64,000 bases of DNA from a virus (taxonomy: Duplodnaviria > Caudoviricetes), in the IMG/VR virus record IMGVR_UViG_3300024229_000651; one strand, given 5' to 3'. Position 1 is the first letter of the stretch; each line of letters opens with the position of its first letter. The position numbers and the translations under genes are program-made. The notes beneath the pieces were generated by a model. That model worked only from the letters and a program-made list of their open reading frames with translations. It was not told where the DNA came from and did not search any database. Positions 41,358 to 63,911 of the stretch are shown here, piece after piece.

Positions 41358-41567
41358 TTAGTATGATGTGGGAGGCTGTGCAACAAAGTCCAAGCCTACT
41401 CTACTAGCTCTAAACTCTTGCAGTTTGCTATCCCATTGCATGTTGAGGTCCATGCCTCCCATGTCCACAGTCATGTACTGACCTGAAGCATAAGCCTTAA
41501 CCTCACCTTCCACGACTCTTCCATTATCTTCGCAAAGAATCTCAACTGGCTTATAGTAACCTATCAT
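41358..41567 (-). CDS. Small hypothetical protein
   Basis: ATGA overlap with the ligase stop. Confidence 0.6.
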   Translation of the reverse strand: MIGYYKPVEILCEDNGRVVEGEVKAYASGQYMTVDMGGMDLNMQWDSKLQEFRASRVGLDFVAQPPTSY

Positions 41568-42832
41568 AGTTTTTCTCCTGGCACAAAGCCTCTAAATGTT
41601 TTAAAACGTGGGAATCTTAAACTGTATGCTGAGTTGTCTTGACTGATTGTAACAGCATCAGCTCGTATTTCAACTAATTGTCCGATAGCAGAATCTTTCA
41701 CAGCCCATACATCTTTACGCATGTCATCGGTAAGCCCACTGCCCACGTTAAGGTGAAAGAACTTTCCGTCGTCTTCACCTTCAACAACCAACGCACCTAA
41801 CATGTCAGCATTCTTACCAGTACCTTCTTCTACACCCACTACTTCGAGTGTTACCTCAATGAAGGGCTTGATCTTCAACCATGCATGACTTCGCTTGCAA
41901 TGGTACAAAGCATCCACAGGCTTTACCATAAGACCCTCGTAACCTTCGTCTAACGCACGTTTATTCATATCAGCAAATTGTGTACGTCCGTTGTCTGTGT
42001 CTAAGTCTACAAGAGTGGCATCCACTACACGGATTGTATCGTCGAGCAACTCTGTTAATGCTTCTAGTCTGTGCCTACGAATACCTGCATTCTCTTTGCT
42101 TACGCCTGCATGGAATTCGTCAATACTGATAAAGTCAAACAGTGCTAAGTATGCATCTTGTGTTTGAGCACCTTCCTTCCTATGCACCTGTTTCATAAGG
42201 GCCTGGAAGTTCTCGCTCATTACTTCTCCGTCGAAAACAATACCATTGAACTCTGTCTTGCTAAGGGCCTCTTCAATATGTGGGAAGTTGGAAAGTAGTT
42301 TCCCGTTGCGGCTATATAGTGTTGCGCAGCCATTTTGCACAATAGCAATAACACGCACACCATCATACTTGTATTCAACGAAGCATTTTCCTGCAATCTT
42401 CTTTTCATGTTTAGCTCCATCGTGCGCTAACATACAACCGAACAATGGAATAGTGTCCTTTTGTACTTTGTTAAACAGTTTAGCACCAGTACCACAGCGT
42501 AGGTCTTTGATAAGAATTCTACGATACCAATCGTTCCATTGTTCGATTGTGCTGTTGTCTGCCATTGTTTGAATAGCATCTCTTGCGGCATATCCTGTGA
42601 GCTCTCTTTTAACTAACTCATCAGCTAACGATTTGAAGTCGTCCCAACTAACCCCAGGACCTATAGTGTCTGTGGTAGGCACTTGTTTTACACCAAACGT
42701 TACAAGCGGATCGATGCACATAGTAGCACCTTCGATAAACTCAGCATTGTCGATGTTGTCTTTGAGTATTACTTGCTTTGCTAGAATGCTATTGTCTGCC
42801 TCTAGTGCCTGTATGATATTCCACGGATTCAT
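41564..42832 (-). CDS. lig: ATP-dependent DNA ligase
   Basis: EYKYDGVR (motif I KxDG), FDGE, FD, EGLMVK, WLKIK, VGSG, SLRFPRF. Confidence 0.95.
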   Translation of the reverse strand: MNPWNIIQALEADNSILAKQVILKDNIDNAEFIEGATMCIDPLVTFGVKQVPTTDTIGPGVSWDDFKSLADELVKRELTGYAARDAIQTMADNSTIEQWNDWYRRILIKDLRCGTGAKLFNKVQKDTIPLFGCMLAHDGAKHEKKIAGKCFVEYKYDGVRVIAIVQNGCATLYSRNGKLLSNFPHIEEALSKTEFNGIVFDGEVMSENFQALMKQVHRKEGAQTQDAYLALFDFISIDEFHAGVSKENAGIRRHRLEALTELLDDTIRVVDATLVDLDTDNGRTQFADMNKRALDEGYEGLMVKPVDALYHCKRSHAWLKIKPFIEVTLEVVGVEEGTGKNADMLGALVVEGEDDGKFFHLNVGSGLTDDMRKDVWAVKDSAIGQLVEIRADAVTISQDNSAYSLRFPRFKTFRGFVPGEKL

Positions 42833-46479: not shown

Positions 46480-46992
46480 TTAAAATATGAATTTTTCCCA
46501 GCTGGGATGCTTGATATGCACAGACATAGCGGTCTTGTTCTTTACTAGATCATAGTAACTTGGTGGGACAGGTTTCCTTGACGGCAAAGGAGTCAGGTCA
46601 TTTCCCTTATCACTGTTACACGGCTGACATGCTGTAACTACATTTTCAAAGGAAGTGTCTCCGCCTTTACTTACCGGAAGTACATGGTCTATGGTAGCAG
46701 TGCTGTAGGATAGATCTATATCACAATACTGGCATTTAAAACTGTCTCGTAGAAATACATTGTACTTGGAAAATCTAACTTTGGTGTTTTTCCTTACGTA
46801 TGTCTTTATCATTATCACGGCAGGAACTTTAGTTTCCCACGTGGGACTGCTGACCATCCATTCGTCATACCATTCTAGTACATGTACTTTGTCGAGCACC
46901 ATATACTTAACAGACTCTTGCCAACTAATTGCGCTAAGTGGAAGCACTGAGTAAGGTTTACCGTCTGCATTCAATACCAATGTGTCGCTCAC
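46480..46992 (-). CDS. HNH endonuclease (McrA-like)
   Basis: RDSFKCQYC, TIDHVLPVSKGG, NVVTACQPCN. Confidence 0.9.
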   Translation of the reverse strand: MSDTLVLNADGKPYSVLPLSAISWQESVKYMVLDKVHVLEWYDEWMVSSPTWETKVPAVIMIKTYVRKNTKVRFSKYNVFLRDSFKCQYCDIDLSYSTATIDHVLPVSKGGDTSFENVVTACQPCNSDKGNDLTPLPSRKPVPPSYYDLVKNKTAMSVHIKHPSWEKFIF

Positions 46993-49904: not shown

Positions 49905-50091
49905 TTCGACTTTCTCCTTTCACTAAAATTCTAGGTTCGCTTGTACCAAATTGTCTGGCATAAACAGTTTTACCACCGTCTGGTGATTCGTAAATGTAAG
50001 GAACCTTTCCCTGAGTTCCGTATCTTCGTTGATAGTTTGGATTTTTCAACTTCTCAAACATCTCATCAATGTTACTGTCTAACTCGCCCAC
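49897..50091 (-). CDS. Small hypothetical phage protein
   Basis: YIYESPDGGKTVYAR. Confidence 0.6.
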   Translation of the reverse strand: MGELDSNIDEMFEKLKNPNYQRRYGTQGKVPYIYESPDGGKTVYARQFGTSEPRILVKGESRND

Positions 50092-51064
50092 CCAACATCT
50101 CCGAATACTGTGATGCGCTCTCGCCCATTCGCTGCAAGTTCCACTTACCGCAGAACTTCATAAAGTGCAGTCCGATAGTACCTACAGCATCCTTTGCTGA
50201 TTGTTCTTCTATAGCAAGTTTGCATCGTGTCTTTACTTCTTCTGGTTGCAACGTGAGGTCAATCAATATACGATTACGTTCGAAGTCATCCTTAACACGA
50301 TGTTCTACATCTTCGTGGTCTACCCAACGTTGTAACATAAAGTTATTGTAGTCAAACCCAGCATTCTTTCTATCTGCAAATGCCTCTGCAATACCAATCT
50401 TATTCTTACTGCCTTTCTTCCTAGCACCAGGGTACGCACTGAACACGTTGTCAGTCGCATCACCACGCACACACTTCTCAAACAGAATATACTCAGGATC
50501 GCCTAATACCTTGTCTTCTCCTGTCTTCTTGTCTTTAACTATCTTACCTGTTTTGAGATCTTTAAACCCTTCAAGACTAACAACTTGATCAGTAGTGCCG
50601 TTATACTGCGTTACATTGGGAGCAATGAGCTGATAAAAGTCGCTGTCAGTACTAATAATGTAATGATTATCGTCTGGCTTCTGTTGGATCCAAGATGCTA
50701 TCAAATCATCTGCTTCTGCTGTAGGACAGTGTAGCACGGAGCAATTAGTCCTGTCCTTAAAGAACTGTACCATATCGTCGTATGCTTCAAAGTACATTTC
50801 ATCGTCTTCCTGCTCGCGGACACTACGCTTGTCTGCAACTACTTTACGGTTTGCTTTGTAAGGTGTAAAAAAGTCCTTACGCCAGCTACGGCCTTCTAAA
50901 CATAGTACGATATGATCACCATCGAACTCTCTCCAACACTTGTTTAAACTGTTAAACATGATATGCATAGCCATGCCAATTTTAGTATCAATGTCCTGAC
51001 CACGCCCACCTACATGCTTTGCTCGCATAAACATGTTTAAGCCGTCAACTAACAAGTAATTCAT
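50072..51064 (-). CDS. rnh: T4-type RNase H / 5'-3' exonuclease (FEN family)
   Basis: LLVDGLN, EADDLIA, ISTDSDFYQL, GDATDNV. Confidence 0.9.
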   Translation of the reverse strand: MNYLLVDGLNMFMRAKHVGGRGQDIDTKIGMAMHIMFNSLNKCWREFDGDHIVLCLEGRSWRKDFFTPYKANRKVVADKRSVREQEDDEMYFEAYDDMVQFFKDRTNCSVLHCPTAEADDLIASWIQQKPDDNHYIISTDSDFYQLIAPNVTQYNGTTDQVVSLEGFKDLKTGKIVKDKKTGEDKVLGDPEYILFEKCVRGDATDNVFSAYPGARKKGSKNKIGIAEAFADRKNAGFDYNNFMLQRWVDHEDVEHRVKDDFERNRILIDLTLQPEEVKTRCKLAIEEQSAKDAVGTIGLHFMKFCGKWNLQRMGESASQYSEMLGGRVRQ

Positions 51065-51816: not shown

Positions 51817-52704
51817 TTATTTTCCTATTGCGTTGCCATATATGTGTACGTGTACTCGGCTTGTGTAATTGTATCCACGTTGTATTGCTTCATCGGCTAT
51901 ACTTGCTTCTGTTTGTACCAAGCCTTCGAATGTACCGCCGACACCCATAATCCATACTGGGAAGTTACATCCTGCTTCTCTGAATAGTTTGGTATTTTCT
52001 TCTACTTCTCTCCAACTTTCATCAGTGCCATTTACTACAAATTTTAGTTGACCACGACTAGAGACTTCGGCATACTTACCTACCACTTCAGGCTGAATAG
52101 CCTTTTTAGATTTCTCACCAGCAGTGCTCCACAGTTTAGGACTGATACTCCAATACCATTCTTTGCCTTCACATCTAGTATAACAACGATTAATATAATC
52201 AGCAAACTCGTCAGTGATAGGTCTAGTACCATTTGTTTCTACAGTAACAAAGTTGGGCATATTATCTCTTTTAGCAAACTCGTCTAACACACCAATCATA
52301 CCTGGCTGTGTGTTCTTTAACATAGGCTCGCCACCTGTAAACACCATGTGCGTTTCTTGTAATGTTGCAGGATGAATAAAGCTACCGTGCGGCAGAAGGG
52401 CTGTAAGCTCGTCTACTGCATCCTTTACACTACGATCGGTAATGAGATGCTTAAACTTCTTACTCCACGTATACGAACTATCACATCCTTTGTCAAACAC
52501 AGGAAGATCAAACACATTATCGATGTGCGTGATATCAATTTTCTCATATGGTAAGTCGTATGTGCTAGGGTCAGTAGGATCTGTTTGACCAAAGCCATTG
52601 CATTGTAAATTACACAAAAAGAATCTCATCCACAGGCTAGGTATGCCTACATACTGCCCTTCTCCTTGTGCTGAATAAAATGTTTCGCTGTACTTTAAGT
52701 TCAT
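51817..52704 (-). CDS. queE: 7-carboxy-7-deazaguanine synthase (radical SAM)
   Basis: YSETFYSAQGEGQYVGIPSLWMR, CNLQC...CDS, FTGGEP, VETNGT, SISPK, RVH; near folE. Confidence 0.85.
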   Translation of the reverse strand: MNLKYSETFYSAQGEGQYVGIPSLWMRFFLCNLQCNGFGQTDPTDPSTYDLPYEKIDITHIDNVFDLPVFDKGCDSSYTWSKKFKHLITDRSVKDAVDELTALLPHGSFIHPATLQETHMVFTGGEPMLKNTQPGMIGVLDEFAKRDNMPNFVTVETNGTRPITDEFADYINRCYTRCEGKEWYWSISPKLWSTAGEKSKKAIQPEVVGKYAEVSSRGQLKFVVNGTDESWREVEENTKLFREAGCNFPVWIMGVGGTFEGLVQTEASIADEAIQRGYNYTSRVHVHIYGNAIGK

Positions 52705-52967
52705 ATGTCTATGCCCTTTAACTTGAGATACACCATCTCATCTGGTGTAGCCCATTCTGTTCTGTTCAAGTGGTGTCTGGGGAATTGCGGCGGGTCTATT
52801 TTCATTTTCCTAGTTCTAGTGTAACCTACTCTAAACCAAATTAACGACTTATTAAAAGTAGACCTTCTTGGAAAAAGTACAAAGGTTTTCTTCCAATCAC
52901 TGTATATTAGGTTATCTGCAGAATAAATATAGTCTACAGCATTACCGCTCTCACCCGGAATGGGCAC
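52701..52967 (-). CDS. Hypothetical protein
   Basis: WKKTFVLFPRR; overlaps the queE start. Confidence 0.55.
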   Translation of the reverse strand: MPIPGESGNAVDYIYSADNLIYSDWKKTFVLFPRRSTFNKSLIWFRVGYTRTRKMKIDPPQFPRHHLNRTEWATPDEMVYLKLKGIDI

Positions 52968-53503
52968 TACATACCCATCCGTTCTTTTGTTTCTAAGTAT
53001 TCATCGTAGTCTAAGTCTTGGCGTGTGCGCTCAATATCAACTAACACATTGGGTATATTTCTTATTAGAGCACTGTTAACTAATGTTTCTATATCAGTTA
53101 GACTATGCTCTCCCCGTTCATGTAAGTCGATTATTCTTAGACAACAAACTCTCAATGCTAGGTTTACTAGTGTTGTAAAGGATTGTTTGTGCGGATAGTA
53201 CTGAAGCGAAGCTGCTAGTAGTTTCATATACGGAACTTGATGCAGCCTAGTAATTTCTATTACAACATCAAATTCATCTTTACCCACATTTATCAAGTCA
53301 AGTAACTGATCGTCTGGTGCTCCAGGTAACGTGGTATTTTCTGCATAAAAACTAATAGCATCCACAATGTCTTGCCTGTCCATCGATGGATAAAGTTCAT
53401 ACAATTTTTCAAATGTTGCCCCACTTGCAATCTTATCACAAATGCCATCGACTGGGACAAGCCCGTTTGTTACAACGAATGTGTTCTGTCTTTTCTCGAT
53501 CAT
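52967..53503 (-). CDS. DUF433-like HTH domain protein
   Basis: VPVDGICDKIASGATFEKLYELYPSMDRQDIVDAISFY. Confidence 0.6.
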   Translation of the reverse strand: MIEKRQNTFVVTNGLVPVDGICDKIASGATFEKLYELYPSMDRQDIVDAISFYAENTTLPGAPDDQLLDLINVGKDEFDVVIEITRLHQVPYMKLLAASLQYYPHKQSFTTLVNLALRVCCLRIIDLHERGEHSLTDIETLVNSALIRNIPNVLVDIERTRQDLDYDEYLETKERMGM

Positions 53504-53513
53504 TGTTAGTGCC

Positions 53514-54191
53514 TTATTTAGATGAGTTTACAATGTTCATGAATTCAGCACGAACGTCTGGTTCGTTCTTAAAGCAACCTCCTAGCTTGCTAGTGATTGT
53601 TGAGGAGCCTGTGTCCTCGACACCTCGACTCTTAACGCAATAATGTTGTGCATCAACAATAACTCCAATATTGGGCGTATCTAATATATACGACAATGCA
53701 TGATAAACTTGTTCAGTTAATCTTTCTTGGATTTGTGGACGTTTAGCAAAATATTCAACAACTCTGTTAAGTTTACTAAGTCCTAGCACTCTTTCATTTG
53801 GGATGTAGCCCACTGTAGCAACACCATCAATTACAACAAAGTGATGCTCGCAGTTTGATTGAACATTAATGTTACGCTCAATAACCATTTCGTCGTACTT
53901 CATTTTATTGTCTACTGCTGTACACTTTGGGAATGCTTCGTAGTCAAGTCCCCAAAAGATTTCGTTAACATACATCTTTGCCACACGCTTAGGTGTGTCC
54001 ATAAGACTGTCATCTGAAAGGTCTAGCCCCATGACGTTCATGATGTTTTTAAAGTGTTCTTCGATTAGATCAATTTTATCTGTACGAGAAAACCCGTTGT
54101 TATCAACTGGTGTTTCAACACCCATCTTTACTAGATGTTCGTGTACTCTGCGACCCAGATCTGGGTCAGTTTTAGTCTTATTATAAGCCAT
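53514..54191 (-). CDS. folE: GTP cyclohydrolase I
   Basis: DTPKRVAKMY, SNCEHHF, GLSKLNR, RPQIQERLT, HYCVKSRGV. Confidence 0.97.
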   Translation of the reverse strand: MAYNKTKTDPDLGRRVHEHLVKMGVETPVDNNGFSRTDKIDLIEEHFKNIMNVMGLDLSDDSLMDTPKRVAKMYVNEIFWGLDYEAFPKCTAVDNKMKYDEMVIERNINVQSNCEHHFVVIDGVATVGYIPNERVLGLSKLNRVVEYFAKRPQIQERLTEQVYHALSYILDTPNIGVIVDAQHYCVKSRGVEDTGSSTITSKLGGCFKNEPDVRAEFMNIVNSSK

Positions 54192-54256
54192 TCGATTCTC
54201 CTTCCTAACGCGGATTTAAATTTTTGAATTGTGTTGCTACCTTTGTGTAGCATTTA

Positions 54257-54264
54257 TATTTATC
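54257..54264 (-). promoter_or_regulatory. T4-late-like promoter GATAAATA upstream of folE
   Basis: Same motif as the other sites; followed by a 65-nt leader. Confidence 0.5.
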
Positions 54265-54469
54265 AACTGTCAAGTTTGATAATACCATTTTCCCAATTTT
54301 CTACTACATCCTCAGCATAGTGGATGCTTTTATTGAGCAATGTACGTGTCTCTTTCATAACACCATCCTCGAACAAGTCGACGACATAAGTCATGTCAGG
54401 GCCTTTAGTACCATCGCTGATATATTTAACTTTTCTTATTTTTGCAATACGTTCCATTACTTCCACCAT
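54263..54469 (-). CDS. Small hypothetical protein
   Basis: HYAEDVVENWENG. Confidence 0.55.
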   Translation of the reverse strand: MVEVMERIAKIRKVKYISDGTKGPDMTYVVDLFEDGVMKETRTLLNKSIHYAEDVVENWENGIIKLDS

Positions 54470-54921
54470 TCCTCATAAGGAAAAACGATCCAATTGTTAT
54501 CCTCAAGTTCAATTTCTTCTGCATAATAGTCTACACCATCGAACGAACTTGATTGCTTGTTAAATATTGTAGCATATCTGATGTCAGAATACAAGCTATT
54601 ATTTTTATTAATAGCTTCAGATATACCAGACAGAGTGCTACCAGTGTCGTTGATATCATCGATAACAAGAATATCTGTGTTACTATGATTGCTTAAAATA
54701 CTTTGTAGTTGTTCAGCATCTTCGAAATCACCATCCCTTGTTTGCCAGTTGAATCCTTCGAACGGAACGTTTAAATAGTGACTGAGCATTACACCGGGTA
54801 TATATCCTCCTCTACCAGGCCCAATTACTACACCTGGATTAAACGAGTCCAAGGAAATCATACGCACCAAATCAGCAAGGTATGATTCTAAATCATCCCA
54901 TGTATAAAATTTCTTCATCAC
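54457..54921 (-). CDS. Type I phosphoribosyltransferase (Gpt-like)
   Basis: GPGRGGYIPG, ILVIDDINDTGST (PRPP-binding loop), WIVFPYE. Confidence 0.9.
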   Translation of the reverse strand: MMKKFYTWDDLESYLADLVRMISLDSFNPGVVIGPGRGGYIPGVMLSHYLNVPFEGFNWQTRDGDFEDAEQLQSILSNHSNTDILVIDDINDTGSTLSGISEAINKNNSLYSDIRYATIFNKQSSSFDGVDYYAEEIELEDNNWIVFPYEEWWK

Positions 54922-55901
54922 GTTTTCCTTTTAGATTTTGCAGATTGCCATTTGATCTCATCTCTGATAATATCTTCAATAGACATAGCAGGACTCCATC
55001 CTAATACTTTAGCGGCTTTGCTATTATCTGCAAAAGTACCTACCATATCACCCGGTCGCCTAGGCGTAATAGATGTATCAATCTCTGTGTCTAGTTCTTT
55101 TGCAACCAGATCAACAAGTTGTTTTGTGCTGACAGGATTGCTACTACCAATGTTTAATGTAGTTGAATCGCCACCGTCACTCAAGTAGTTAACAGCGGAT
55201 TGGAACGCTCTTGCAACGTCACTCACGTGGGTATAGTCACGAATGTTTGTTCCGTCTACAGTGTCGTAGTCGTCGCCGTTAATCTCAAACCCTTCGTTCT
55301 CCATAGCTTTTCGTGTAAGTATGGGAAGAACATGAACAAGCGGATCTTTTTGATAACCGTATCGGCCATTAGCACTGCCTGCAACATTAAACAGTCTCAA
55401 GTTAACAAAGTTAAAATCGTTTGCCGTTGCATAGTCTTGGATAATTTGCTCACAGATCATTTTTGATCTGCCATATGGATTGATTGGACTTAGGCTATCG
55501 TCTTCTTTGAACATACCATTGTCTTGTTGGCTTGTACCGTATACACTACTACTTGATGCAAATATAAAGTTCTTTACACCAGCGTCAGCGCAGTTATTAA
55601 GCAAGTTGATTGTTTGATAGACATTTTGTGTGTACGTGGTCGCCGGGTCCTTCATACTAGCTGGTACACTGTTATTTGCCGCTATATGAATAACTACATC
55701 AGGTTTAAGTAACTTTAATATACCGTTAACTTGTTTGTTATCAACCTCAAACGGGTATTGGGTTACACCTTCTAATGTGCGTTTGCTTTTATCAATGTTA
55801 ACAACATTGTATCCGCTGTCTGATAACAATCGACAAACGTTACTTCCAATAAAGCCGCTGCCTCCCGTTACAACCACAGATTTTTCTGTTATGTTATTCA
55901 C
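54918..55901 (-). CDS. galE: UDP-glucose 4-epimerase-like extended SDR
   Basis: VTGGSGFIG, FASSSSVYG, YGRSK, RLFNVAG, RDYTHV. GTG start; the ORF track starts at 55940. Confidence 0.9.
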   Translation of the reverse strand: MNNITEKSVVVTGGSGFIGSNVCRLLSDSGYNVVNIDKSKRTLEGVTQYPFEVDNKQVNGILKLLKPDVVIHIAANNSVPASMKDPATTYTQNVYQTINLLNNCADAGVKNFIFASSSSVYGTSQQDNGMFKEDDSLSPINPYGRSKMICEQIIQDYATANDFNFVNLRLFNVAGSANGRYGYQKDPLVHVLPILTRKAMENEGFEINGDDYDTVDGTNIRDYTHVSDVARAFQSAVNYLSDGGDSTTLNIGSSNPVSTKQLVDLVAKELDTEIDTSITPRRPGDMVGTFADNSKAAKVLGWSPAMSIEDIIRDEIKWQSAKSKRKT

Positions 55902-56952
55902 TTGTGTGTCCTCTAATAATTGTGTACAGTTTCTCACCACTGAAAAACTCTTTTCTTAAATTGCTTTCCAAATCTTGTATTCGATTATCTCGTTCGTAAC
56001 TAGGAGTAAGAACTGCTTGTATGTATTCAACTATCTTATCCTTGTGGTTCAAATAGCTGTCCCAATCCTCTGTCCATGCACTTGGATATTTAAAGTAGTC
56101 ATCGTACATCTCTGTATAACTAAGTCTGTCTGGAACAATAGGTTGAGCACCTACAATGGCTCCTTCGTAACAACTGATGCCTAATGTTTCTTGTGTGTTA
56201 GCACTGAACACTGCTTTGGCTTTACCAAGTAGATCATGATACTCGTCTTTGGTTAGCGTTTGTTCCTGACAAACAATAAAGTCTGTGTCTGGAAAGCTGT
56301 TAGCTAAGTCTTTGAAAATATCAACTTGTTTTTCAGGTGCGACCCGATGAGGGAATAGTACAATATCTTCTTTGTCGGCAGAAGTATGTGTGTCTAATAA
56401 TCCCTTCATGTACTCCATTGGCCAACCCACTTTGTGAATTTTATTTAAATCCACATCTGGGAATGCCTCTAAAAATAATTCTATATGAAAGTCGGTAGCA
56501 TAAAAATTATCATCGAAGGCATTGAACATTGCAAGTTCTGTGTGTCTGCACCATGGAGCGTTACCTATCAGCCTTCCTAAAAAGTCTGCTGGGTCATAAC
56601 TACCGGCATGCCACATGCCTCCGATTTTAATTTTTACATCAAGTAATTCAGCCATATACTTTAATTGAAGAACTGTAGGGTTCCAAGCATCAGTGTATAA
56701 GAAGTAGTCTCCGTCTTGTACAGTACCGTCTGCAAACATCTGGCTAATTGTTTTCAGTTGCTCGCTTTTCCAGTAATTAGTTCCACTGAAGTTTAAAAAT
56801 GCTCCCGGAGTTGTGTCTTGAGGAGCATCAGCTGGTCCCTCTATAACATGTACCTCTAGCCCAGCATCACGCATTTGCTGAGGCAAATGCTTTTTCCACT
56901 GCGCAGTGTATCTTGTTTCTACAGGTTCTATTTCAACTAAGTATACTTTCAT
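55894..56952 (-). CDS. GT-B (GT4-like) glycosyltransferase
   Basis: FPHRVAPEKQ, QETLGISCYEG (E-x7-E), PIVPDRLSYTE. Confidence 0.8.
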   Translation of the reverse strand: MKVYLVEIEPVETRYTAQWKKHLPQQMRDAGLEVHVIEGPADAPQDTTPGAFLNFSGTNYWKSEQLKTISQMFADGTVQDGDYFLYTDAWNPTVLQLKYMAELLDVKIKIGGMWHAGSYDPADFLGRLIGNAPWCRHTELAMFNAFDDNFYATDFHIELFLEAFPDVDLNKIHKVGWPMEYMKGLLDTHTSADKEDIVLFPHRVAPEKQVDIFKDLANSFPDTDFIVCQEQTLTKDEYHDLLGKAKAVFSANTQETLGISCYEGAIVGAQPIVPDRLSYTEMYDDYFKYPSAWTEDWDSYLNHKDKIVEYIQAVLTPSYERDNRIQDLESNLRKEFFSGEKLYTIIRGHTSE

Positions 56953-56954
56953 AA

Positions 56955-57137
56955 TTACATGCTGTTCTTTTTATCTTGAATTTCTGCACGTCTAGTCTTA
57001 GCTAGTTTACCTAAATCGCCTAATGCTTTACGAGCACGAGCTGATGCAGCTTTCACACCCTTTGATTCGAATTTTTCACTCTCCTCTAAGTATGTTTCCA
57101 TTGCCGCTTTGATTTGTAAATGTGTTTCTGAACTCAT
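56955..57137 (-). CDS. Histone H1-like (Hc1-type) small basic DNA-binding protein
   Basis: KGVKAASARARKALGDLGKLAKTRR resembles the Hc1-family KGNKAAGxRARK motif. Confidence 0.7.
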   Translation of the reverse strand: MSSETHLQIKAAMETYLEESEKFESKGVKAASARARKALGDLGKLAKTRRAEIQDKKNSM

Positions 57138-57153
57138 AGTTCTCTCCTTAGTG

Positions 57154-58188
57154 TTATTCCGTATTTGATACGGATTCGATTATGGCACCATAATTTTTTT
57201 GATATTCCATTAGGGTGTCGTAATTATGTTGTAATATTTCTGCAGTTTCTAGTGAATACATATCGATATGCATTTGTTTAATGGACAGTCCTTTTAGCTG
57301 TTCCAGCACATGATTCATTCTCTTGTCGTCATCGAGCGAATCGTATCTTTCGTCAAATATGTGTGGGAAGGTTTTAAATCCCATTTTGCGTAACTCTTTC
57401 AATGAATTTTTATTACCGATAAGTAAGAAAGGTCTCTTATTATATATGCTTCGGAATATCTTCTCACTGAAAAATACTGGTTCCCAATGCGCTAATTGTG
57501 CACAATGAAACTGATCATGGAAATAAAATGTTTCAGGGACCAAGTCGAAGTAAGTTCTATCGTAAATATCAAAAAACTCTTTCCCTGGATCTTGAAAGGT
57601 TCTGCGCTCCATTACAGTTTTGTGTCCCTCAGCAGACTTTGGAACTTTGTCGTGAAACCATGGATGTAACTCTTCCTTAAAGTCGTTTATCCATGTCCAT
57701 TCGCAACTGTCAATGAGATTATTTTCGTAGATATAATTCATTGCTTCGATACGATGGTCTCTTGGCTCTCCGCACAAGTATGTGAATAACTTTTCTCTGT
57801 GGGTATTGTTTCGTAATACCTCATATTGTGCATGGTAATCAGTTGTGTTTGTGACAAGTACGGATGCCCAAATTGGATAGTATGCTACAGTTAGTCTACT
57901 ACTTGGGTTGTTTTCTTTGCACCACATATCGTATAGATCTTGGACATTAACATTACCCCACCATAGTGTTACTAAACTGGGGTCAACGGATGCAATACTG
58001 CACTGCTCGTATATAACAGTAAACAAGTCCATGCCACGAGAAGTGTGAGTAGATTGCCTATCCGGATCTATAAAAAGCCCGCCCTCAGTGATTAAGTCCA
58101 TTGAGATAGTCTCGCCAGCTGGCATCAGGGCTAACTCTTCGTGCAAAGTTTCGCCTGGGTAACCTGAATACAGCTGGATATGATTCAT
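57154..58188 (-). CDS. Third member of the TET-TEK-PF-GFxTF family
   Basis: LVPETF...FSEKIFRSIYNKRPFLLIG...GFKTFPHIFDERYD. Confidence 0.65.
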   Translation of the reverse strand: MNHIQLYSGYPGETLHEELALMPAGETISMDLITEGGLFIDPDRQSTHTSRGMDLFTVIYEQCSIASVDPSLVTLWWGNVNVQDLYDMWCKENNPSSRLTVAYYPIWASVLVTNTTDYHAQYEVLRNNTHREKLFTYLCGEPRDHRIEAMNYIYENNLIDSCEWTWINDFKEELHPWFHDKVPKSAEGHKTVMERRTFQDPGKEFFDIYDRTYFDLVPETFYFHDQFHCAQLAHWEPVFFSEKIFRSIYNKRPFLLIGNKNSLKELRKMGFKTFPHIFDERYDSLDDDKRMNHVLEQLKGLSIKQMHIDMYSLETAEILQHNYDTLMEYQKNYGAIIESVSNTE

Positions 58189-58556
58189 TCCTGATACTCT
58201 ATTTCACAACCATTTTCGTTGTCTTCTGCAACAGATATCTTTAGCCAGCGGTCTGGGTACTTGGCTTGTACATGCTCCGCTAAATCATCTGCGATCATTT
58301 CACAGCTCTTGTAATCCAACTGCAATGTGTCTTGTGTGTACAGTCTTTCCATCCAGCGTTTAAACTGAATAAACTCCACGTCTCTGTCATTGTGGAACAC
58401 TTCAAGCCAAACTTTAAAATGGAATATATGTCGGTGGGGATATCCTAAAAAAGATACGTCATCCCAATCGCCTGTTGCTAGATTGGGATCAGTATCAGCG
58501 CCTGGATACTTGTGTACACCTTCCTTTTGAAACGTTACCCAAATACTTCTCATCAA
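58185..58556 (-). CDS. T-fold QueD paralog, DpdL-like
   Basis: HKYP...LGYPHRHIFHF; lacks the QueD CxxxHGH motif; SCEMIA...EDNENG; inside the deazaguanine cluster. Confidence 0.65.
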   Translation of the reverse strand: MMRSIWVTFQKEGVHKYPGADTDPNLATGDWDDVSFLGYPHRHIFHFKVWLEVFHNDRDVEFIQFKRWMERLYTQDTLQLDYKSCEMIADDLAEHVQAKYPDRWLKISVAEDNENGCEIEYQE

Positions 58557-58626
58557 TCGTCCTCAGTTTTTATTACTATCCAAACTACTAGTATACTAAA
58601 CAATATTCCTGCAAATGCATATTCCA

Positions 58627-59103
58627 TTACGCATCACTACCAAACGTATCGATATACTCTGCTAGGTCTTTGATGTCATCCTCTGACAACATACCTGCTT
58701 GCCCCCACATAAGTGCACTCTGTGCCCCTACTGTTTCTCCTGCTTTGTAACTACGTAAACGATCTACGATATATTCCACAGTCTGTCCTGCAAGCATGGG
58801 ACCAACTCCGCCTTGCCCACGTGCTCCGTGACAAGCACCACAAGAAGCATATTTTGCTTGCCCGGGCATAACATCAGCAGATGCTAATTGCACTCCGGCG
58901 CTTACAACATAGGCACTTGCTGACCCAGTAAAGTTTGCAGGTTCAGCAGATACGTGAACTACACCGAAGCCTTTGATTCTTTCTTCGATGCCTGCTAGTT
59001 GTTCTTTTGTAGTATCAGTACGTTTTGCTGCGAACACAGCTTGCTCGCCACAGCCGCCAATGAACAGTGTTGCTGCTAAGATTGTTGTTGTTAATAGTTT
59101 CAT
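58627..59103 (-). CDS. Monoheme cytochrome c (c553/c4-like) with lipoprotein-like signal
   Basis: MKLLTT...LFIGGC lipobox-like; CGACHG (CxxCH); GPMLAGQ; ALM axial Met. Confidence 0.85.
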   Translation of the reverse strand: MKLLTTTILAATLFIGGCGEQAVFAAKRTDTTKEQLAGIEERIKGFGVVHVSAEPANFTGSASAYVVSAGVQLASADVMPGQAKYASCGACHGARGQGGVGPMLAGQTVEYIVDRLRSYKAGETVGAQSALMWGQAGMLSEDDIKDLAEYIDTFGSDA

Positions 59104-59333
59104 GTGTTATCTCCGTCAAAATATTTAACATCACTTTTATTAAAAGGTTTATTATCGTCGCCTTTGACCAAAGAAACTAGTCGGGCGATCTCGTCTTTAA
59201 CCTTGAGTTTGGTTTTCTTAAGAAAGTTTACTCGCATATCACCTTCATAGTTTTCACTTGCAAGCTCAATTTGACTATCAAGTCTTTTGTGTTTTGTTTT
59301 AAGAACTTCAATTCTATCTTTCATTGTAGTCAT
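59100..59333 (-). CDS. DUF465/YdcH-like coiled-coil protein
   Basis: RIEVLKTKHKRLDSQI...LKKTKLKVKDEIARL. Confidence 0.7.
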   Translation of the reverse strand: MTTMKDRIEVLKTKHKRLDSQIELASENYEGDMRVNFLKKTKLKVKDEIARLVSLVKGDDNKPFNKSDVKYFDGDNT

Positions 59334-59511
59334 CTTCTTCTCCTCCTAAGCACTTTCTGTCTTCAGGTTCAATTGGATTATCGTAATAATCGTGCGTTCC
59401 TGCTCTGTACCTTGCTTTCTTTTCGCTGACTAGAACACAACTCATATATGCCATCCATCCCATGCCCGCAAGAAAAATCAAACTGAATATAGTTTGTATT
59501 ACTTCAATCAT
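59314..59511 (-). CDS. Small single-TM protein
   Basis: Hydrophobic N-terminus; overlaps neighbours. Confidence 0.55.
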   Translation of the reverse strand: MIEVIQTIFSLIFLAGMGWMAYMSCVLVSEKKARYRAGTHDYYDNPIEPEDRKCLGGEEDDYNER

Positions 59512-59629
59512 CGGATAGCTCTGCCGTTGTGTTATAAAGACCTTTCATACTTTCGATAACTGCAATAATCTCTTCGACTTCGTCAGCATCATCTTTAGTA
59601 TCAATTTCTATTTCAATTTTAATTTTCAT
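59504..59629 (-). CDS. 41-aa hypothetical protein (below ORF-track cutoff)
   Basis: Hand translation MKIKIEIEIDTKDDADEVEEII...; directly follows promoter P8. Confidence 0.55.
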   Translation of the reverse strand: MKIKIEIEIDTKDDADEVEEIIAVIESMKGLYNTTAELSDD

Positions 59630-59635
59630 AATAAT

Positions 59636-59664
59636 ATTATACTGTATATAGGATCAATAGTCAA
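59636..59664 (-). promoter_or_regulatory. Sigma70 promoter P8
   Basis: TTGACT-N17-TATAAT. Confidence 0.75.
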
Positions 59665-60100
59665 CCATTTTATTTGGCGTATCACCCCTTTGCTCCCTCA
59701 AATTCACCTTTTCCAAACTAAGTTTATCCTTCAAACTCAATACATATGCACTCGCAGCAAGTATAGCAATACCTGTTGTTTCATAAAGTATAAATTCAGG
59801 CTCAGTTCCTTTAGTTGTTAATACAATCATTCTAGTCAGTGCTGTGATTGCAATAATGATAGGTAGTGTGACTGGTATTCTATGATCTTTATAAAATGCA
59901 CCAACCATACCTAATATTTCTGCGTAAATAAACAATAGGAATAAGTCGGCCAATGCCATCTTTCCGCTTGTTGTGAACATATGCAAAATATCAAACCCAG
60001 CTGCCCATACTGTACCTGCTACAATAAACAATAGCAATGCTTTTTCCATATGCATAATAATTCTATGGACAGAGTTCTTATATTTTCTACTGAATGACAT
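59654..60100 (-). CDS. psiE: Phosphate-starvation-inducible PsiE family membrane protein
   Basis: LADLFLLFIYAEILGMV..FYK.HRIPVTLPIIIAITALTR. Confidence 0.85.
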   Translation of the reverse strand: MSFSRKYKNSVHRIIMHMEKALLLFIVAGTVWAAGFDILHMFTTSGKMALADLFLLFIYAEILGMVGAFYKDHRIPVTLPIIIAITALTRMIVLTTKGTEPEFILYETTGIAILAASAYVLSLKDKLSLEKVNLREQRGDTPNKMVDY

Positions 60101-60630
60101 TACTCTATTACCTCGTCGCCCACATATTCAGTCCAATCGGTGTACTTGGATCTGTCTTTGAGGTCGTGTAAACTGTGGCACCAAACACCTGTGTTTGTTC
60201 CTTTGAATGATTTATCATCTAGTTTGAGTGTTGTATTGTAGTTAAACAATTTGATATTCGGAAGTCGAACAGCAATCATAGGGATAAATTTATTGTAGTC
60301 AGTCCAGCCGTTATCGTGAAACCATTCGTGATTAGCATAGGAGCTGTCGAAATCAAGTGTGACCCATACATCAGCGTCTAACAGTTGCGTAATAATGTAA
60401 TCCCATTCTGCCCACGAGTTCGAATCATCTTGTGGCTGAAATGAGTCAGCACATCCTAAGTACACATGATCAATTTTGTTGTTTAGACATCTTGCTAAAA
60501 TCTCCTTAACATTTTGTCTACCAATAACAAACAACGTTTTTTTGCCATACAGAGGAGTATGCTCAACTTCAGTACCAATAAAGAACTTTGGATCGTCTCC
60601 AAAGTTGGTCCTACCTTCTACTGTTGCCAT
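60100..60630 (-). CDS. Hypothetical protein coupled to the TGT-like operon
   Basis: FIGTEVEHTP.YGKKTLFV, TGVWCH; overlaps both neighbours. Confidence 0.65.
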   Translation of the reverse strand: MATVEGRTNFGDDPKFFIGTEVEHTPLYGKKTLFVIGRQNVKEILARCLNNKIDHVYLGCADSFQPQDDSNSWAEWDYIITQLLDADVWVTLDFDSSYANHEWFHDNGWTDYNKFIPMIAVRLPNIKLFNYNTTLKLDDKSFKGTNTGVWCHSLHDLKDRSKYTDWTEYVGDEVIE

Positions 60631-61508
60631 GTTAAATATGTCCTGTTCTTGTCTATGCTTGTTGTTCTGTTGTTAAATGCAGTACCGGCTTCTGTAGTAG
60701 GATACTCGGCGCCCCACATATCGTCAACGTTAATGATATTCTTTTGTACTAATAAGTTTGCCTTAACCATACTGTTATAAAACGTTTTTGTTCTCGGACT
60801 AGGAAAATCCGTTCTAATCGATTTCCATAGAAACGGAGCAAAGTCTACATCACCGTGCTTCTCTGCACACATTAAATAGTGACCATTGTTATTAAGTATG
60901 TCGGCAGTAAAATACTTTATATGACTCGACAAGTCGACAACTACATCATACTGATCAGATAGATTATGTTCTCGCCTAGCACCTTTATCATCCCACCAGT
61001 CAGAGTATGCTTTACCTGTTACTGTAACATTACGTAATCTGCTTTTGTTATTGTACTCTAACACTTCATATATTACTCTTGCTAAGAAGCCTGTGCCTAT
61101 CATTAGCAATGACCTATTACCTAATTTACCAATTATGTCTGCAATGTTTACAGCACATGCCACAGGCTCTAGTATATATTTAGGCATTGCCGCTGGAACA
61201 ACAACAAATTCTCCGTCTCTAACATTATAGTAGTCTGCAAATGCAGGCTCTCCTCTAGTGGCTACAATGTCGCCTACCTTTGCAGTACTTACATTTTTGC
61301 CAACAGACATAACTTCGCCTAGCCCTTCATGCCCGTGCATGTTATCAGGCAACATGTTCATGTCACCATTAAACATGGCTACGTCACTACTGCATATACC
61401 TGTGTATATAGACTTAACTACTATTTGGTCTTCGGTGTGTTCAGGTTTATCCCACTCGATATGAGATATTGTCTTATCGCTGTTCACTTTAATTAAATTA
61501 CATTTCAT
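60618..61508 (-). CDS. Medium-chain (Zn-ADH/GroES-like) dehydrogenase
   Basis: TGICSSD, GHEGLGEV, LEPVACA, GTGFL. Confidence 0.8.
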   Translation of the reverse strand: MKCNLIKVNSDKTISHIEWDKPEHTEDQIVVKSIYTGICSSDVAMFNGDMNMLPDNMHGHEGLGEVMSVGKNVSTAKVGDIVATRGEPAFADYYNVRDGEFVVVPAAMPKYILEPVACAVNIADIIGKLGNRSLLMIGTGFLARVIYEVLEYNNKSRLRNVTVTGKAYSDWWDDKGARREHNLSDQYDVVVDLSSHIKYFTADILNNNGHYLMCAEKHGDVDFAPFLWKSIRTDFPSPRTKTFYNSMVKANLLVQKNIINVDDMWGAEYPTTEAGTAFNNRTTSIDKNRTYLTWQQ

Positions 61509-62379
61509 TTTCGTGGTACCTTTCTAGCTGACTATGTATCCATAGATCCATATCAATGTGGTCTTGGTAACTATCTTTCTCTGAACGTGCTATCATTCTT
61601 CCGTATGCGTCATTAGGGCATAACCCAAACCGCCATTCGTATGTGCTGTCTTCTGTGTATACTTTTACACTCTGATCATCAATGCCAGTCTTCCATCCTG
61701 CTTTTATTGTAACAGGCACATTGTTCCAAGTCCAATGCTCTTCGGCATAGTCACACACATCATATACACCTTCTGCATTTACATTACCGTAGTTTGTTGA
61801 TAATAATTCTTCTAGTTCCCACTGTCTTGTTTTAGTATGGCTCACAAAAGACATCTCTGTTAACGGAACAATTTTACTTAGGTTACAATATAAGTGTGGG
61901 AACAAATCTAAAGCCACTCCACCCCATGCAAGTTTTTTATTTGTGAACCAACTACCCGGACTAGGAACACGATTTGCATTCAACCATGATACTTCAATCT
62001 TGGTTGGTCTTATACTCTTATTCAACAGATCGTCTAGTGCGCCGTATGATGTTCGATATAGATTATTTTTACACATGATGTACTTTGTATCAGTGTATCT
62101 ATTCTGCAGGCGTGTTAATGCTTCCACACTGGGTAAACCAGGCTTTTCAATAAACACAGTTTTGCAATACATACCAACTTTTTCGGCAATAGGAAGGTGT
62201 GTAAAATTAGGCGTACAAATAACAGCAACATCAAATTCTCCACGAACATCGTCGACGTTGTTATAATTTGCTGTAACAACTTGCTGATCCACAGTTGTGA
62301 CTGTGTACCCTAACTGAGTTAACTCAGGTAAGTAAACGTTAGACCCTATACCCCCTAGACCAACAAGTAATGCTCTCAT
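61498..62379 (-). CDS. Gfo/Idh/MocA family oxidoreductase
   Basis: LVGLGGIG, ICTPNFTH, IEKPG, GGVALDLFPH. Confidence 0.85.
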   Translation of the reverse strand: MRALLVGLGGIGSNVYLPELTQLGYTVTTVDQQVVTANYNNVDDVRGEFDVAVICTPNFTHLPIAEKVGMYCKTVFIEKPGLPSVEALTRLQNRYTDTKYIMCKNNLYRTSYGALDDLLNKSIRPTKIEVSWLNANRVPSPGSWFTNKKLAWGGVALDLFPHLYCNLSKIVPLTEMSFVSHTKTRQWELEELLSTNYGNVNAEGVYDVCDYAEEHWTWNNVPVTIKAGWKTGIDDQSVKVYTEDSTYEWRFGLCPNDAYGRMIARSEKDSYQDHIDMDLWIHSQLERYHENEM

Positions 62380-63911
62380 AGTTCTCCTACTAGCTCTCCG
62401 AGTGCCTCTTCTTGAATAGCATCAAACTCTCCTTCGACTTGTTGCTCTACTTCCTCATCGAAGAACATACTAGCAGCACTAGTCTTAAATGCAGTATCAT
62501 GATCTTTGTGTTTGTTATTGCTAACGTCATTTAGGAATTCATGCGCATCATCTAACAATTGGTGAGGATTGTCGCTTTGGAATAACTCTTCAACAAACGT
62601 GTTAAACATCAGTAAGTTTCTAGGAGTGTATAAACTCTCTTGATTGAGTTTCTTACCCTTCTTCTGCCAGCTTCTCCAATCCAACTTGTAGTTTTCAAAC
62701 TCAATAGTTGCTAGACTATTTGCTTCCTGTACTGCTCTAATATGCATGTAAACATTGTGTGCCATCAGCATACCATACGTAAAACTATCCCAAGAAGTTT
62801 TACCTTCTTTGTTGATCTTGTTTAACATACCGGGAGCATACCAATTAACATCACCAGTTACAAGCCTACTACCAATCTCACTCTCCCACGGGAAAGGATT
62901 AGCAGACAAGTTACCAGGACTAAAGTGTGAGTTCGCTTTATTGTCGAAGCACTTCTCCATTATGTAACTCATTTGTTCACTGGTAATTTTATTACGTGTG
63001 TATACTAATCCATTAGCACTACTGATATATGGACTAGCACAATCAAAACTAACTGTGATGTTTGGATTAACATGCTCTCTGAGTTGTCGTTGCACACTTG
63101 TAAGCATAACTGCCCACTCTAGTTTACTTGTACCCAAGAAGTGAATCCAATCTCGATCCTGTAGTTTTTCATCATCACGTAAAGTAATGATACGTTTCAG
63201 TGCCATGTGCATGTCACGGATATTATTACCACCCATGCCCCAGCCTTCTGTGTCGTAGTCCTTAACTTTTTGATACCATTCTTCTGCATCTTCCCAATAG
63301 GTTCCTTGCAGTACATTCAAGAACTTTGTCTTGCCTTGTCTATGATCCATAAACCAATCTAAGTTGTATGCAGTACACTTCAAGCACTCATCAAAGTTCT
63401 GTAGTCCAGTCTTCTCTCTAAAGCCCGGCTTACATGCCCAGCTAGGAACATCAAACGTCATACTCCAGTCTGCTGTGTGTTCTAGCCAGTTAAGGATCTT
63501 GCCCCTAACTTTGTCAGCATCGCCTTTGTATCCAACATCGCCAGGCTTCTCAAAGAAGTTTTCCCAGTCAAACTTAATAACACCTTTACCAATCTGGAAA
63601 CCACCTGAATCCCCTACGATAGTTGTGTTAGCTCTGTCTCTATGTTGTATGATGTGTTCCATTACCTTACTCTTCTCTATGTCCAAGTAAGCATGTCCAG
63701 CACTATACAACCCTTTGTTATAGTAGTAGTAACCCTTCTCTTTGTCCAAGAAGTTCATGCCCTCAAAGCCATGTTCGAAGCCTTTGGGTACTCGACCGTC
63801 CGGAATATATCCATCCACACTGTTGCATCTGCCTAGTAGCTCTGTCATAAAGCCACTAATAGCTGGGAGGAAAGTTGCGTAATCGCTATGCTTGGAGGAT
63901 AGATCTCTCAT
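62376..63911 (-). CDS. TGT-fold transglycosylase, DpdA-like
   Basis: GDSGGFQIGKG (TGT catalytic Asp motif), MTFDVP, LNVLQG, HFLG, HN near the C-terminus. Confidence 0.7.
   Translation of the reverse strand: MRDLSSKHSDYATFLPAISGFMTELLGRCNSVDGYIPDGRVPKGFEHGFEGMNFLDKEKGYYYYNKGLYSAGHAYLDIEKSKVMEHIIQHRDRANTTIVGDSGGFQIGKGVIKFDWENFFEKPGDVGYKGDADKVRGKILNWLEHTADWSMTFDVPSWACKPGFREKTGLQNFDECLKCTAYNLDWFMDHRQGKTKFLNVLQGTYWEDAEEWYQKVKDYDTEGWGMGGNNIRDMHMALKRIITLRDDEKLQDRDWIHFLGTSKLEWAVMLTSVQRQLREHVNPNITVSFDCASPYISSANGLVYTRNKITSEQMSYIMEKCFDNKANSHFSPGNLSANPFPWESEIGSRLVTGDVNWYAPGMLNKINKEGKTSWDSFTYGMLMAHNVYMHIRAVQEANSLATIEFENYKLDWRSWQKKGKKLNQESLYTPRNLLMFNTFVEELFQSDNPHQLLDDAHEFLNDVSNNKHKDHDTAFKTSAASMFFDEEVEQQVEGEFDAIQEEALGELVGEL

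Follow-up and report, generated by a model that had tools for sequence, protein, structure and literature searches.

A candidate DpdL-type 7-deazaguanine DNA-modification module with a core GT4-type glycosyltransferase in a large marine phage related to PA5oct

The deazaguanine system of Cellulophaga phage phiST comprises FolE, QueD, QueE, DpdL, and the presumed inserter DpdA3, and plain 2'-deoxy-7-deazaguanine (dDG; m/z 267.109) is found in the DNA of this phage at 302,000 per million nucleotides (PMC10516641). Cui et al. define the DpdL family by the signature LxxxHRHxF and name phiST gp040 and a protein of Acidovorax phage ACP17 as members (PMC10516641). A deazaguanine system was also noted by Iyer et al. 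2021 in Pseudomonas jumbo phage PA5oct, whose DNA resists restriction enzymes cutting at G-containing sites (PMC12191111), a pattern suggestive of G modification. The window analyzed here is a stretch of 64,000 nucleotides from IMG/VR virus record IMGVR_UViG_3300024229_000651 (Duplodnaviria; Caudoviricetes), in which positions 51817 to 63911 hold a minus-strand run of genes (Table 1). With evenly balanced confidence, the best explanation of this run as a whole is that a large marine phage akin to PA5oct carries a DNA-modification module for 7-deazaguanine of the DpdL type, with a GT4-type glycosyltransferase as a core component. A deazaguanine is very probably present in the DNA of this phage. 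A sugar on that deazaguanine, argued from gene context, is a close call that falls slightly on the doubtful side, and redox tailoring of such a sugar is rather unlikely.

The module shares with the phiST system FolE, QueE, a DpdL of the LxxxHRHxF type, the lack of QueC, and a presumed inserter of the TGT superfamily. The inserters themselves differ, with the 259-residue DpdA3 of phiST showing no recognizable sequence relationship to the 511-residue protein of the window (P0001). The GT4-type glycosyltransferase (P0005), a protein of 176 residues (P0002), GalE, and a purine phosphoribosyltransferase (PRTase) are all missing from phiST and all present in the module. The module of PA5oct (Wroclawvirus; EST35_0316-0322) shows a closer resemblance, with homologs of the DpdA-like protein (38% identity), the glycosyltransferase (46%), DpdL (59%), the PRTase, and QueE, followed by RNase H. 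It lacks the Gfo/Idh/MocA oxidoreductase, the MDR dehydrogenase, GalE, the 344-residue protein (P0004), and a detectable homolog of the 176-residue protein, which are all found in the window.

The glycosyltransferase is closely linked to DpdL in cultured phages. Among 50,697 phage records, 18 match at least 78% of the length of the glycosyltransferase, and all 18 encode DpdL within 3 kb. The gene order varies considerably: DpdA-like gene, glycosyltransferase, and DpdL in PA5oct; 176-residue homolog, DpdA, glycosyltransferase, DpdL, and QueE in ACP17; glycosyltransferase, DpdA, DpdL, and QueE in X1; DpdL, four other genes, glycosyltransferase, and DpdA in BCSR5; and DpdA, DpdL, and glycosyltransferase in BUCT-ZZ01. 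The 469-kb genome of Phosso contains DpdL, the glycosyltransferase, an unnamed gene, and FolE in succession, with QueE also clustered and the DpdA-like gene ∼170 kb away (PV764938.1, positions 323228 to 324730). The glycosyltransferases of these cultured phages are clearly homologous, and BLAST leaves the DpdA partners in at least three unconnected groups. The persistence of the linkage between glycosyltransferase and DpdL through rearrangement and change of partner argues for a shared function. Five DpdL phages, including phiST, encode no homolog of the glycosyltransferase anywhere in their genomes. DpdL modules are therefore split into two classes, with and without the glycosyltransferase, and the DNA chemistry available for DpdL phages, that of phiST, comes from the class without it. 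Expression of the dpdA and dpdL genes of ACP17 in Escherichia coli gave no dDG, and Cui et al. suggest that other enzymes may be needed (PMC10516641). This failure may fit a richer pathway; the glycosyltransferase gene and the 176-residue-protein gene share the operon in ACP17. The restriction pattern of PA5oct DNA also fits a richer pathway.

The conservation of the module was followed in two sets of environmental loci, comprising 165 viral loci in all. The first set contains 80 IMG/VR loci fetched on relatives of P0001 and searched with the window proteins, and its counts are given out of 84; many of its contigs are truncated. The second set consists of 81 loci anchored on the glycosyltransferase of cyanophage BUCT-ZZ01. 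The usual order in the first set is the DpdA-like gene, the 176-residue-protein gene, DpdL, the glycosyltransferase, sometimes GalE, FolE, the PRTase, QueE, a gene for a 173-residue protein, and RNase H. The 176-residue protein and DpdL are each found in 76 of the 84 loci, the glycosyltransferase in 67, FolE in 47, the PRTase in 38, QueE in 35, and GalE in 13. In the second set, GalE directly follows the glycosyltransferase in 76 of the 81 loci; DpdL is likewise present in 76, the P0001 family in 74, the 176-residue protein in 69, FolE in 61, and the PRTase in 52. These counts make the glycosyltransferase and the 176-residue protein core genes, with GalE as a frequent partner of the glycosyltransferase. 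The question raised in the initial annotation, whether GT4 and galE genes accompany dpdA across phages, is answered positively for the glycosyltransferase in both sets, and for GalE in the glycosyltransferase-anchored set but only sparsely in the P0001-anchored one. Its description of deazaguanine genes interleaved with sugar enzymes likewise stands for the glycosyltransferase, often with GalE, as part of the core, while the Gfo/Idh/MocA and MDR enzymes and the 344-residue protein turn out to be rare accessories, and PsiE and cytochrome c unrelated inserts. Among the loci examined, the window carries the most sugar-rich version of the module.

The structural model of P0005 (predicted local distance difference test [pLDDT], 86.5) shows a GT-B fold with two Rossmann domains. 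The VIA aligner gives Z scores of 21 to 25 with the retaining GT4 enzymes sucrose-phosphate synthase, BshA, GlgM, and PimB' (Foldseek E value of 2e-10), compared to 20.5 with a tetrahydrobiopterin glucosyltransferase (5zer) and 16.7 with the T4 DNA alpha-glucosyltransferase. The EX7E motif is formed by E255 and E263, both of which are invariant in 14 homologs; a wider set keeps E263 without exception and E255 almost always. Six of the seven phage glycosyltransferases compared contain the motif, and because it is kept, P0005 looks active. Nine of 20 members of the P0005 family match PF00534, with a best E value of 8e-12. The modeled fold would imply the use of a nucleotide sugar; it does not reveal the acceptor. 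A relationship to QTMAN/GTDC1 was considered and rejected: PF12038 is unmatched in 20 family members at an E value of 0.1 or better, and the 30 best structural matches in Swiss-Prot do not include QTMAN. GalE, whose gene overlaps that of the glycosyltransferase by 47 bases, scores 279.2 bits against the TIGR01179 cut-off of 262.3. The PHROG family matched by GalE, phrog_540, has ∼285 extra N-terminal positions.

The 176-residue core gene was overlooked in the initial annotation, which had listed the ten other genes of the module; all ten are found on one minus-strand run in the places given, packed tightly or overlapping. P0002 shows no family match in Pfam, PHROG, or NCBIfam and no profile match in the PDB. 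Its gene usually lies directly after the DpdA-like gene at the related loci, and a homolog of 132 residues is also encoded by ACP17. Among 15 metagenomic homologs, 40 to 83% identical to P0002, 32 residues are invariant, and 17 remain so after addition of the ACP17 homolog to the alignment. The leads from an Atlas search with P0002 are all weak and point to fragments of barrels from glycoside hydrolases. The 177-residue "glycosylase" preceding DpdL in Phosso was tried as a homolog of P0002 and rejected, as it shows no homology.

The DpdA-like protein P0001 matches no family in Pfam, PHROG, or NCBIfam, and its family profile finds no match in the PDB by sequence. Its assignment to the TGT fold is settled by an AlphaFold model, two structure comparisons, and the order of its motifs. 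The model has a pLDDT of 82 and a predicted template modeling score of 0.83, and the best 50 Foldseek matches in the PDB are all TGT enzymes (E value of 6.5e-9). VIA-align, which works independently of Foldseek, gives Z scores of 18.9 with ArcTGT, 18.1 with QTRT2, 17.6 with bacterial TGT, 16.2 with the DNA preQ0 insertase DpdA (7ui4), and 13.2 with Cap10, compared to 11.5 or less with generic TIM barrels. The TGT motifs occur in the order D101SGG, VLQG200, GWGMGG223, LGTS259, and F289-D-C, and the catalytic residues D101 and D290 are invariant across 18 homologs. P0001 thus has the same TIM-barrel fold as the bacterial DpdA 7ui4 and TGT enzymes (Z scores of 16 to 19), with DSGG, QG, GG, LGxG, and FDC in the same order. 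It differs from them in lacking the CxCxxC zinc site and a PF01702 signal and in having ∼130 extra residues, and no DpdB or DpdC partners are seen. The zinc motif is absent from P0001 and from the PA5oct, ACP17, and X1 proteins and present in E. coli TGT and BCSR5. PF01702 gives no signal for P0001 and none in five related genomes at an E value of 10 or better.

Sequence comparisons alone would hardly place this protein. An hhalign comparison with E. coli TGT gives a probability of only 19%, although the motifs line up. With DpdA3 of phiST (gp042), the hhalign probability of 22.7% and the BLAST E value of 0.65 amount to no recognizable sequence relationship, and a weak structural match is found in BFVD (E value of 5e-3). 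Likeness to the ACP17 DpdA is seen at the profile level only (68% probability). The family of P0001 is large, with 7097 of 8000 scored metagenomic candidates at an E value of 0.001 or lower. Its cultured members come from PA5oct-like Pseudomonas jumbo phages (38% identity), Sinorhizobium phage Phosso, and one Vibrio jumbo phage, and all of them are annotated as "hypothetical protein." On the strength of the model, we assign P0001 to a large zinc-less clade, so far without a name, of the TGT/DpdA superfamily. The structural identification of this putative clade is a new contribution from the window, as are the elaboration with Gfo/Idh/MocA, MDR, GalE, and a second glycosyltransferase-like protein and the division of DpdL phages by presence of the glycosyltransferase.

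The assignment of DpdL in the window is based on its motif and its homologs. The motif LGYPHRHIF, at residue 37, is an exact fit to the published signature, which replaces the CxxxHGH of QueD and is found in seven of the eight DpdL proteins compared. In tblastn comparisons the protein shows 53% identity with DpdL of ACP17 (E value of 2e-38) and 32.5% with phiST gp040 (E value of 4e-7). A crude hhalign comparison with QueD gives only a partial match (42% probability); the T-fold assignment is derived from the homology to published DpdL proteins instead. DpdL is proposed to be a QueD-like T-fold paralog and a putative decarboxylase of 7-carboxy-7-deazaguanine (CDG). In Vibrio phage Bakedbeans, DpdL forms the C-terminal part of a 383-residue open reading frame (gp176) with ∼260 unassigned N-terminal residues, which may be a fusion of DpdL with another pathway enzyme.

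The QueE-like protein contains an SAQGEG motif, and 35 of 36 homologs retain its C31, C35, and C74. It is 36% identical to QueE of PA5oct and scores 35 bits with the NCBIfam QueE models, far below the cut-off of 240. Its cysteines are spaced C-x3-C-x38-C, which is unusual compared to the compact CxxxCxxC. The PRTase is encoded in PA5oct and BUCT-ZZ01 and is missing from ACP17 and many of the environmental loci.

The initial annotation had also pointed out the lack of queC, queF, and a canonical queD in the window. No family match to QueC, QueF, or PTPS/QueD is found in the open reading frames of the module and in 20 minus-strand open reading frames at 31.4 to 48.8 kb, a scan that leaves out the plus strand at 1 to 31 kb. 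The absence of QueD is confined to the window, as becomes clear from five related genomes or large contigs, including the complete PA5oct genome and a 353-kb contig with a completeness rating of 99%. All five contain a gene of the PTPS/QueD family tens of kilobases from the module, and none contains QueC. The missing canonical QueD is thus put down to where the window stops and not to a lack of the gene in the phage. The surroundings of DpdL are those of its family, with FolE and QueE in the window and the PTPS gene, without QueC, in the related genomes. Since these relatives lack QueC, 7-cyano-7-deazaguanine (preQ0) is not made, and the pathway ends at CDG or at the product of DpdL, 7-deazaguanine (DG). 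The substrate of P0001 is likely CDG, DG, or a derivative and not preQ0. PA5oct has two PTPS-family genes (positions 169215 to 171944); the product of one carries the QueD motif CxxxHGH and that of the other CxxxHGY, and the PTPS proteins of the environmental relatives are of the CxxxHGY type only.

Three further genes of the window encode possible sugar-tailoring enzymes. The best PDB match of the Gfo/Idh/MocA protein is WbpB, a UDP-sugar 3-dehydrogenase (E value of 2.6e-4). The MDR protein shows the zinc ligands C39, H59, and E60 and the Rossmann motif GTGFLA, and its best PDB matches, which cover the N-terminal domain only, are ketose, xylitol, and threonine dehydrogenases. The two genes occur in 10 of the 84 loci of the first set, always paired and directly after the DpdA-like gene. 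The 344-residue protein has no family match in Pfam, PHROG, or NCBIfam; an Atlas search finds viral clusters only and, at 0.79, a weak lead to GT10. The gene occurs at 3 of the 84 loci and at 4 of the 81. The domain of the 344-residue protein recurs in viral fusions with a GalE-type epimerase (705 residues) or an MTS methyltransferase (571 residues). These features give a thin case for sugar tailoring and a second transfer step. PsiE is found in none of the 84 loci and cytochrome c in 3. Because most relatives lack PsiE, cytochrome c, and the small open reading frames beside them, we treat these genes as probable insertions in the middle of the module and not as its members.

From these assignments a pathway can be proposed for the module. 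FolE, by its family assignment, would convert GTP to dihydroneopterin triphosphate, from which a QueD-like enzyme encoded outside the window would make 6-carboxytetrahydropterin (CPH4) and QueE would make CDG. DpdL would convert CDG to 7-deazaguanine, as proposed for phiST. P0001 would then exchange guanine in the phage DNA for the deazaguanine base, with D290 as the probable nucleophile and D101 as the acid/base residue. The Gpt-like PRTase could return the released guanine via GMP to GTP and so feed FolE. GalE would supply a UDP-hexose to the retaining GT4 enzyme, which would most likely attach the hexose to the deazaguanine, while the base is still free or once it has been inserted into the DNA. 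In the phage of the window, the Gfo/Idh/MocA and MDR enzymes and the second glycosyltransferase-like protein might oxidize, epimerize, or extend the sugar. The full form of this proposal is tentative and somewhat less likely than not: phages of this lineage would replace guanine by a glycosylated 7-deazaguanine, with the sugar bound N- or C-glycosidically or on a side chain left by DpdL; in the phage of the window, the Gfo/Idh/MocA and MDR enzymes would oxidize or epimerize this sugar, and the second glycosyltransferase-like protein would extend it. The earlier suggestion of a CDG- or DG-derived base that is then glycosylated or carries a redox-tailored sugar thus holds as far as the module stops at CDG or DG and the GT4 enzyme is integral to it; a sugar on the deazaguanine itself is plausible.

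To our knowledge, every 7-deazaguanine found in DNA is sugar-free, and DNA glycosylation is known to us only on hydroxylated pyrimidine bases such as 5-hydroxymethylcytosine (5hmC). In agreement with the initial annotation, full-text literature searches returned no report of a glycosylated deazaguanine in DNA, that of phages included. A GT-B/GT4-type enzyme that adds a hexose to a 7-deazaguanine derivative exists in QTMAN/GTDC1, which acts on queuosine; its acceptor, the cyclopentenediol of queuosine, cannot be made by the pathway in the window. Virus-encoded glycosyltransferases build glycans on 5hmC (bioRxiv 10.1101/2023.12.21.572611). The module resembles such systems, which include the T4 alpha- and beta-glucosyltransferases, in having a GT-B enzyme beside base-modification genes and in having more than one glycosyltransferase-like gene, with which a longer glycan could be built. 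In contrast to 5hmC, the target here would be a purine analogue without a hydroxymethyl handle, and the enzyme is GT4-like and distant from the T4 alpha-glucosyltransferase. No hydroxymethylase is found among the open reading frames scanned (the module and the minus strand at 31.4 to 48.8 kb).

Several points weigh against a glycosylated deazaguanine. All evidence for the sugar is gene context, and among DpdL phages DNA chemistry exists only for phiST, which lacks the glycosyltransferase. The nearest structures to P0005 (Z score of ∼24) use small molecules or glycans and rank above the T4 DNA alpha-glucosyltransferase, and P0005 itself reaches 16.1 bits on PF00534, below the gathering score of 26.4. 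The decarboxylase activity of DpdL is proposed and unproven for phiST (PMC10516641). The Gfo/Idh/MocA and MDR enzymes and the 344-residue protein are rare accessories with weak family matches. Finally, 7-deazaguanine has no hydroxyl group to glycosylate, which leaves an N- or C-glycoside or requires that the base in phages with the glycosyltransferase is not plain DG.

A rival view, unlikely on balance, is that the DNA contains plain 7-deazaguanine and that the sugar enzymes act on virion proteins, host envelope glycans, or another base, lying beside the module only through a common early or DNA-metabolism region. phiST, with 100% dDG and no glycosyltransferase at all, is an example of such DNA, the fold of P0005 best matches small-molecule and glycan enzymes, and PsiE and cytochrome c show that the module admits unrelated inserts. 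What this view fails to account for is that close homologs of the glycosyltransferase occur in the 50,697 phage records only beside DpdL, despite a rearranged gene order and three unrelated DpdA clades; inherited synteny is no explanation for this pairing. In PA5oct, ACP17, Phosso, and BUCT-ZZ01, moreover, the glycosyltransferase gene overlaps or abuts DpdL or the DpdA-like gene. A pre-replicative route, in which the PRTase would make a nucleotide of the deazaguanine (CDG or DG) for incorporation by the polymerase, the TGT-fold protein would work on tRNA or in repair, and nucleotides would be the level at which the glycosyltransferase acts, is quite improbable. Such a base-to-nucleotide PRTase step is known from TubC and ToyH in tubercidin and toyocamycin biosynthesis. 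The frequency of the PRTase in the module and the DNA polymerase just upstream in relatives agree with this route, as does the free 7-amido-7-deazaguanine (ADG) nucleoside in cells infected by Campylobacter phage CP220 (PMC10516641). Every known deazaguanine phage, however, encodes a DpdA-family enzyme, and the field reads this as post-replicative exchange (PMC10516641). The PRTase is also missing from ACP17 and many loci, and the family that it matches best is one of guanine/xanthine salvage.

The glycosyltransferase might also modify a pterin and not a deazapurine, with FolE, the PTPS-like T-fold enzyme, the dehydrogenases, and the GT4 enzyme together making a pteridine glycoside, as in the cyanobacterial pathway of the tetrahydrobiopterin glucosyltransferase. 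FolE, a T-fold enzyme, and reductases are all parts of the pterin side-chain pathway, and tetrahydrobiopterin glucosyltransferases are indeed among the structural matches of P0005 (5zer and 9v0l), but they match no better than dozens of other GT4 enzymes. This reading is very improbable: the core QueE and the TGT-fold enzyme have no role in a pterin glycoside pathway, and the dehydrogenases are absent from most loci.

A glycosylated deazaguanine, if present, would give DNA its first known purine analogue with a sugar attached. In the absence of a hydroxyl handle, its formation would require new chemistry, and it would offer a new route to evade restriction and CRISPR. The lineage with P0001-family proteins is very abundant in marine, freshwater, and soil samples, with more than 7000 metagenomic relatives. 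The question is testable in the cultured phages with the glycosyltransferase, namely, PA5oct, ACP17, X1, BCSR5, BUCT-ZZ01, and Phosso. Of these, PA5oct is a candidate for use in therapy (PMC12191111), and a pathway that includes the glycosyltransferase may explain why dpdA and dpdL of ACP17 failed in E. coli.

Table 1. Genes of the 7-deazaguanine module and its inserts in the 64,000-nucleotide window, in the direction of the minus strand
Feature	Positions	Strand	Basis of assignment
DpdA-like TGT-fold protein, 511 residues (P0001)	62376-63911	-	structure and motifs
Gfo/Idh/MocA NAD(P) oxidoreductase, 293 residues	61498-62379	-	PF01408, 34.7 bits; GLGGIG and EKP motifs
Zn-dependent MDR dehydrogenase, 296 residues	60618-61508	-	ADH_N, 44 bits; zinc ligands
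176-residue core protein (P0002)	60100-60630	-	conservation at related loci
PsiE (PF06146), two small open reading frames, c-type cytochrome (PF00034)	58627-60100	-	Pfam
DpdL, 123 residues (P0003)	58185-58556	-	LGYPHRHIF; phrog_17812, E value of 1.3e-32
344-residue viral protein (P0004), possible second glycosyltransferase	57154-58188	-	weak GT10 lead
GT4-type retaining GT-B glycosyltransferase, 352 residues (P0005)	55894-56952	-	model; EX7E; weak Glycos_transf_1 match
GalE, UDP-glucose 4-epimerase, 340 residues	54918-55940	-	TIGR01179 above cut-off
Gpt-like purine PRTase, 154 residues	54457-54921	-	PF00156, 46.5 bits; xanthine PRTase NF006613, E value of 8e-11
FolE, GTP cyclohydrolase I, 225 residues	53514-54191	-	PF01227, 206 bits; NF006824, 316 bits versus cut-off of 202
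QueE-like radical SAM enzyme, 295 residues, presumed CDG synthase	51817-52704	-	phrog_2076, E value of 1.7e-50

The genes of the module follow each other nearly without gaps, with distances between neighbors of mostly −47 to +16 bases. A megablast search of the region against the 50,697 phage records gave zero matches. Exact copies of the phage sequence occur in at least 20 sequencing runs from seawater, metatranscriptome libraries among them; the flat contig depth is uninformative on transcription. An RNase H/5'-3' exonuclease is encoded at positions 50072 to 51064, as in PA5oct. Farther downstream, on the strand of the module, lie an ATP-dependent DNA ligase (positions 41564 to 42832) and an HNH homing-type endonuclease (positions 46480 to 46992). 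Stretches of 31 to 34 bases at positions 50869 to 50902, 56955 to 56985, and 63112 to 63143 are common, with one mismatch, to separate short contigs from several seawater runs and may represent a short repeated element or a related strain.

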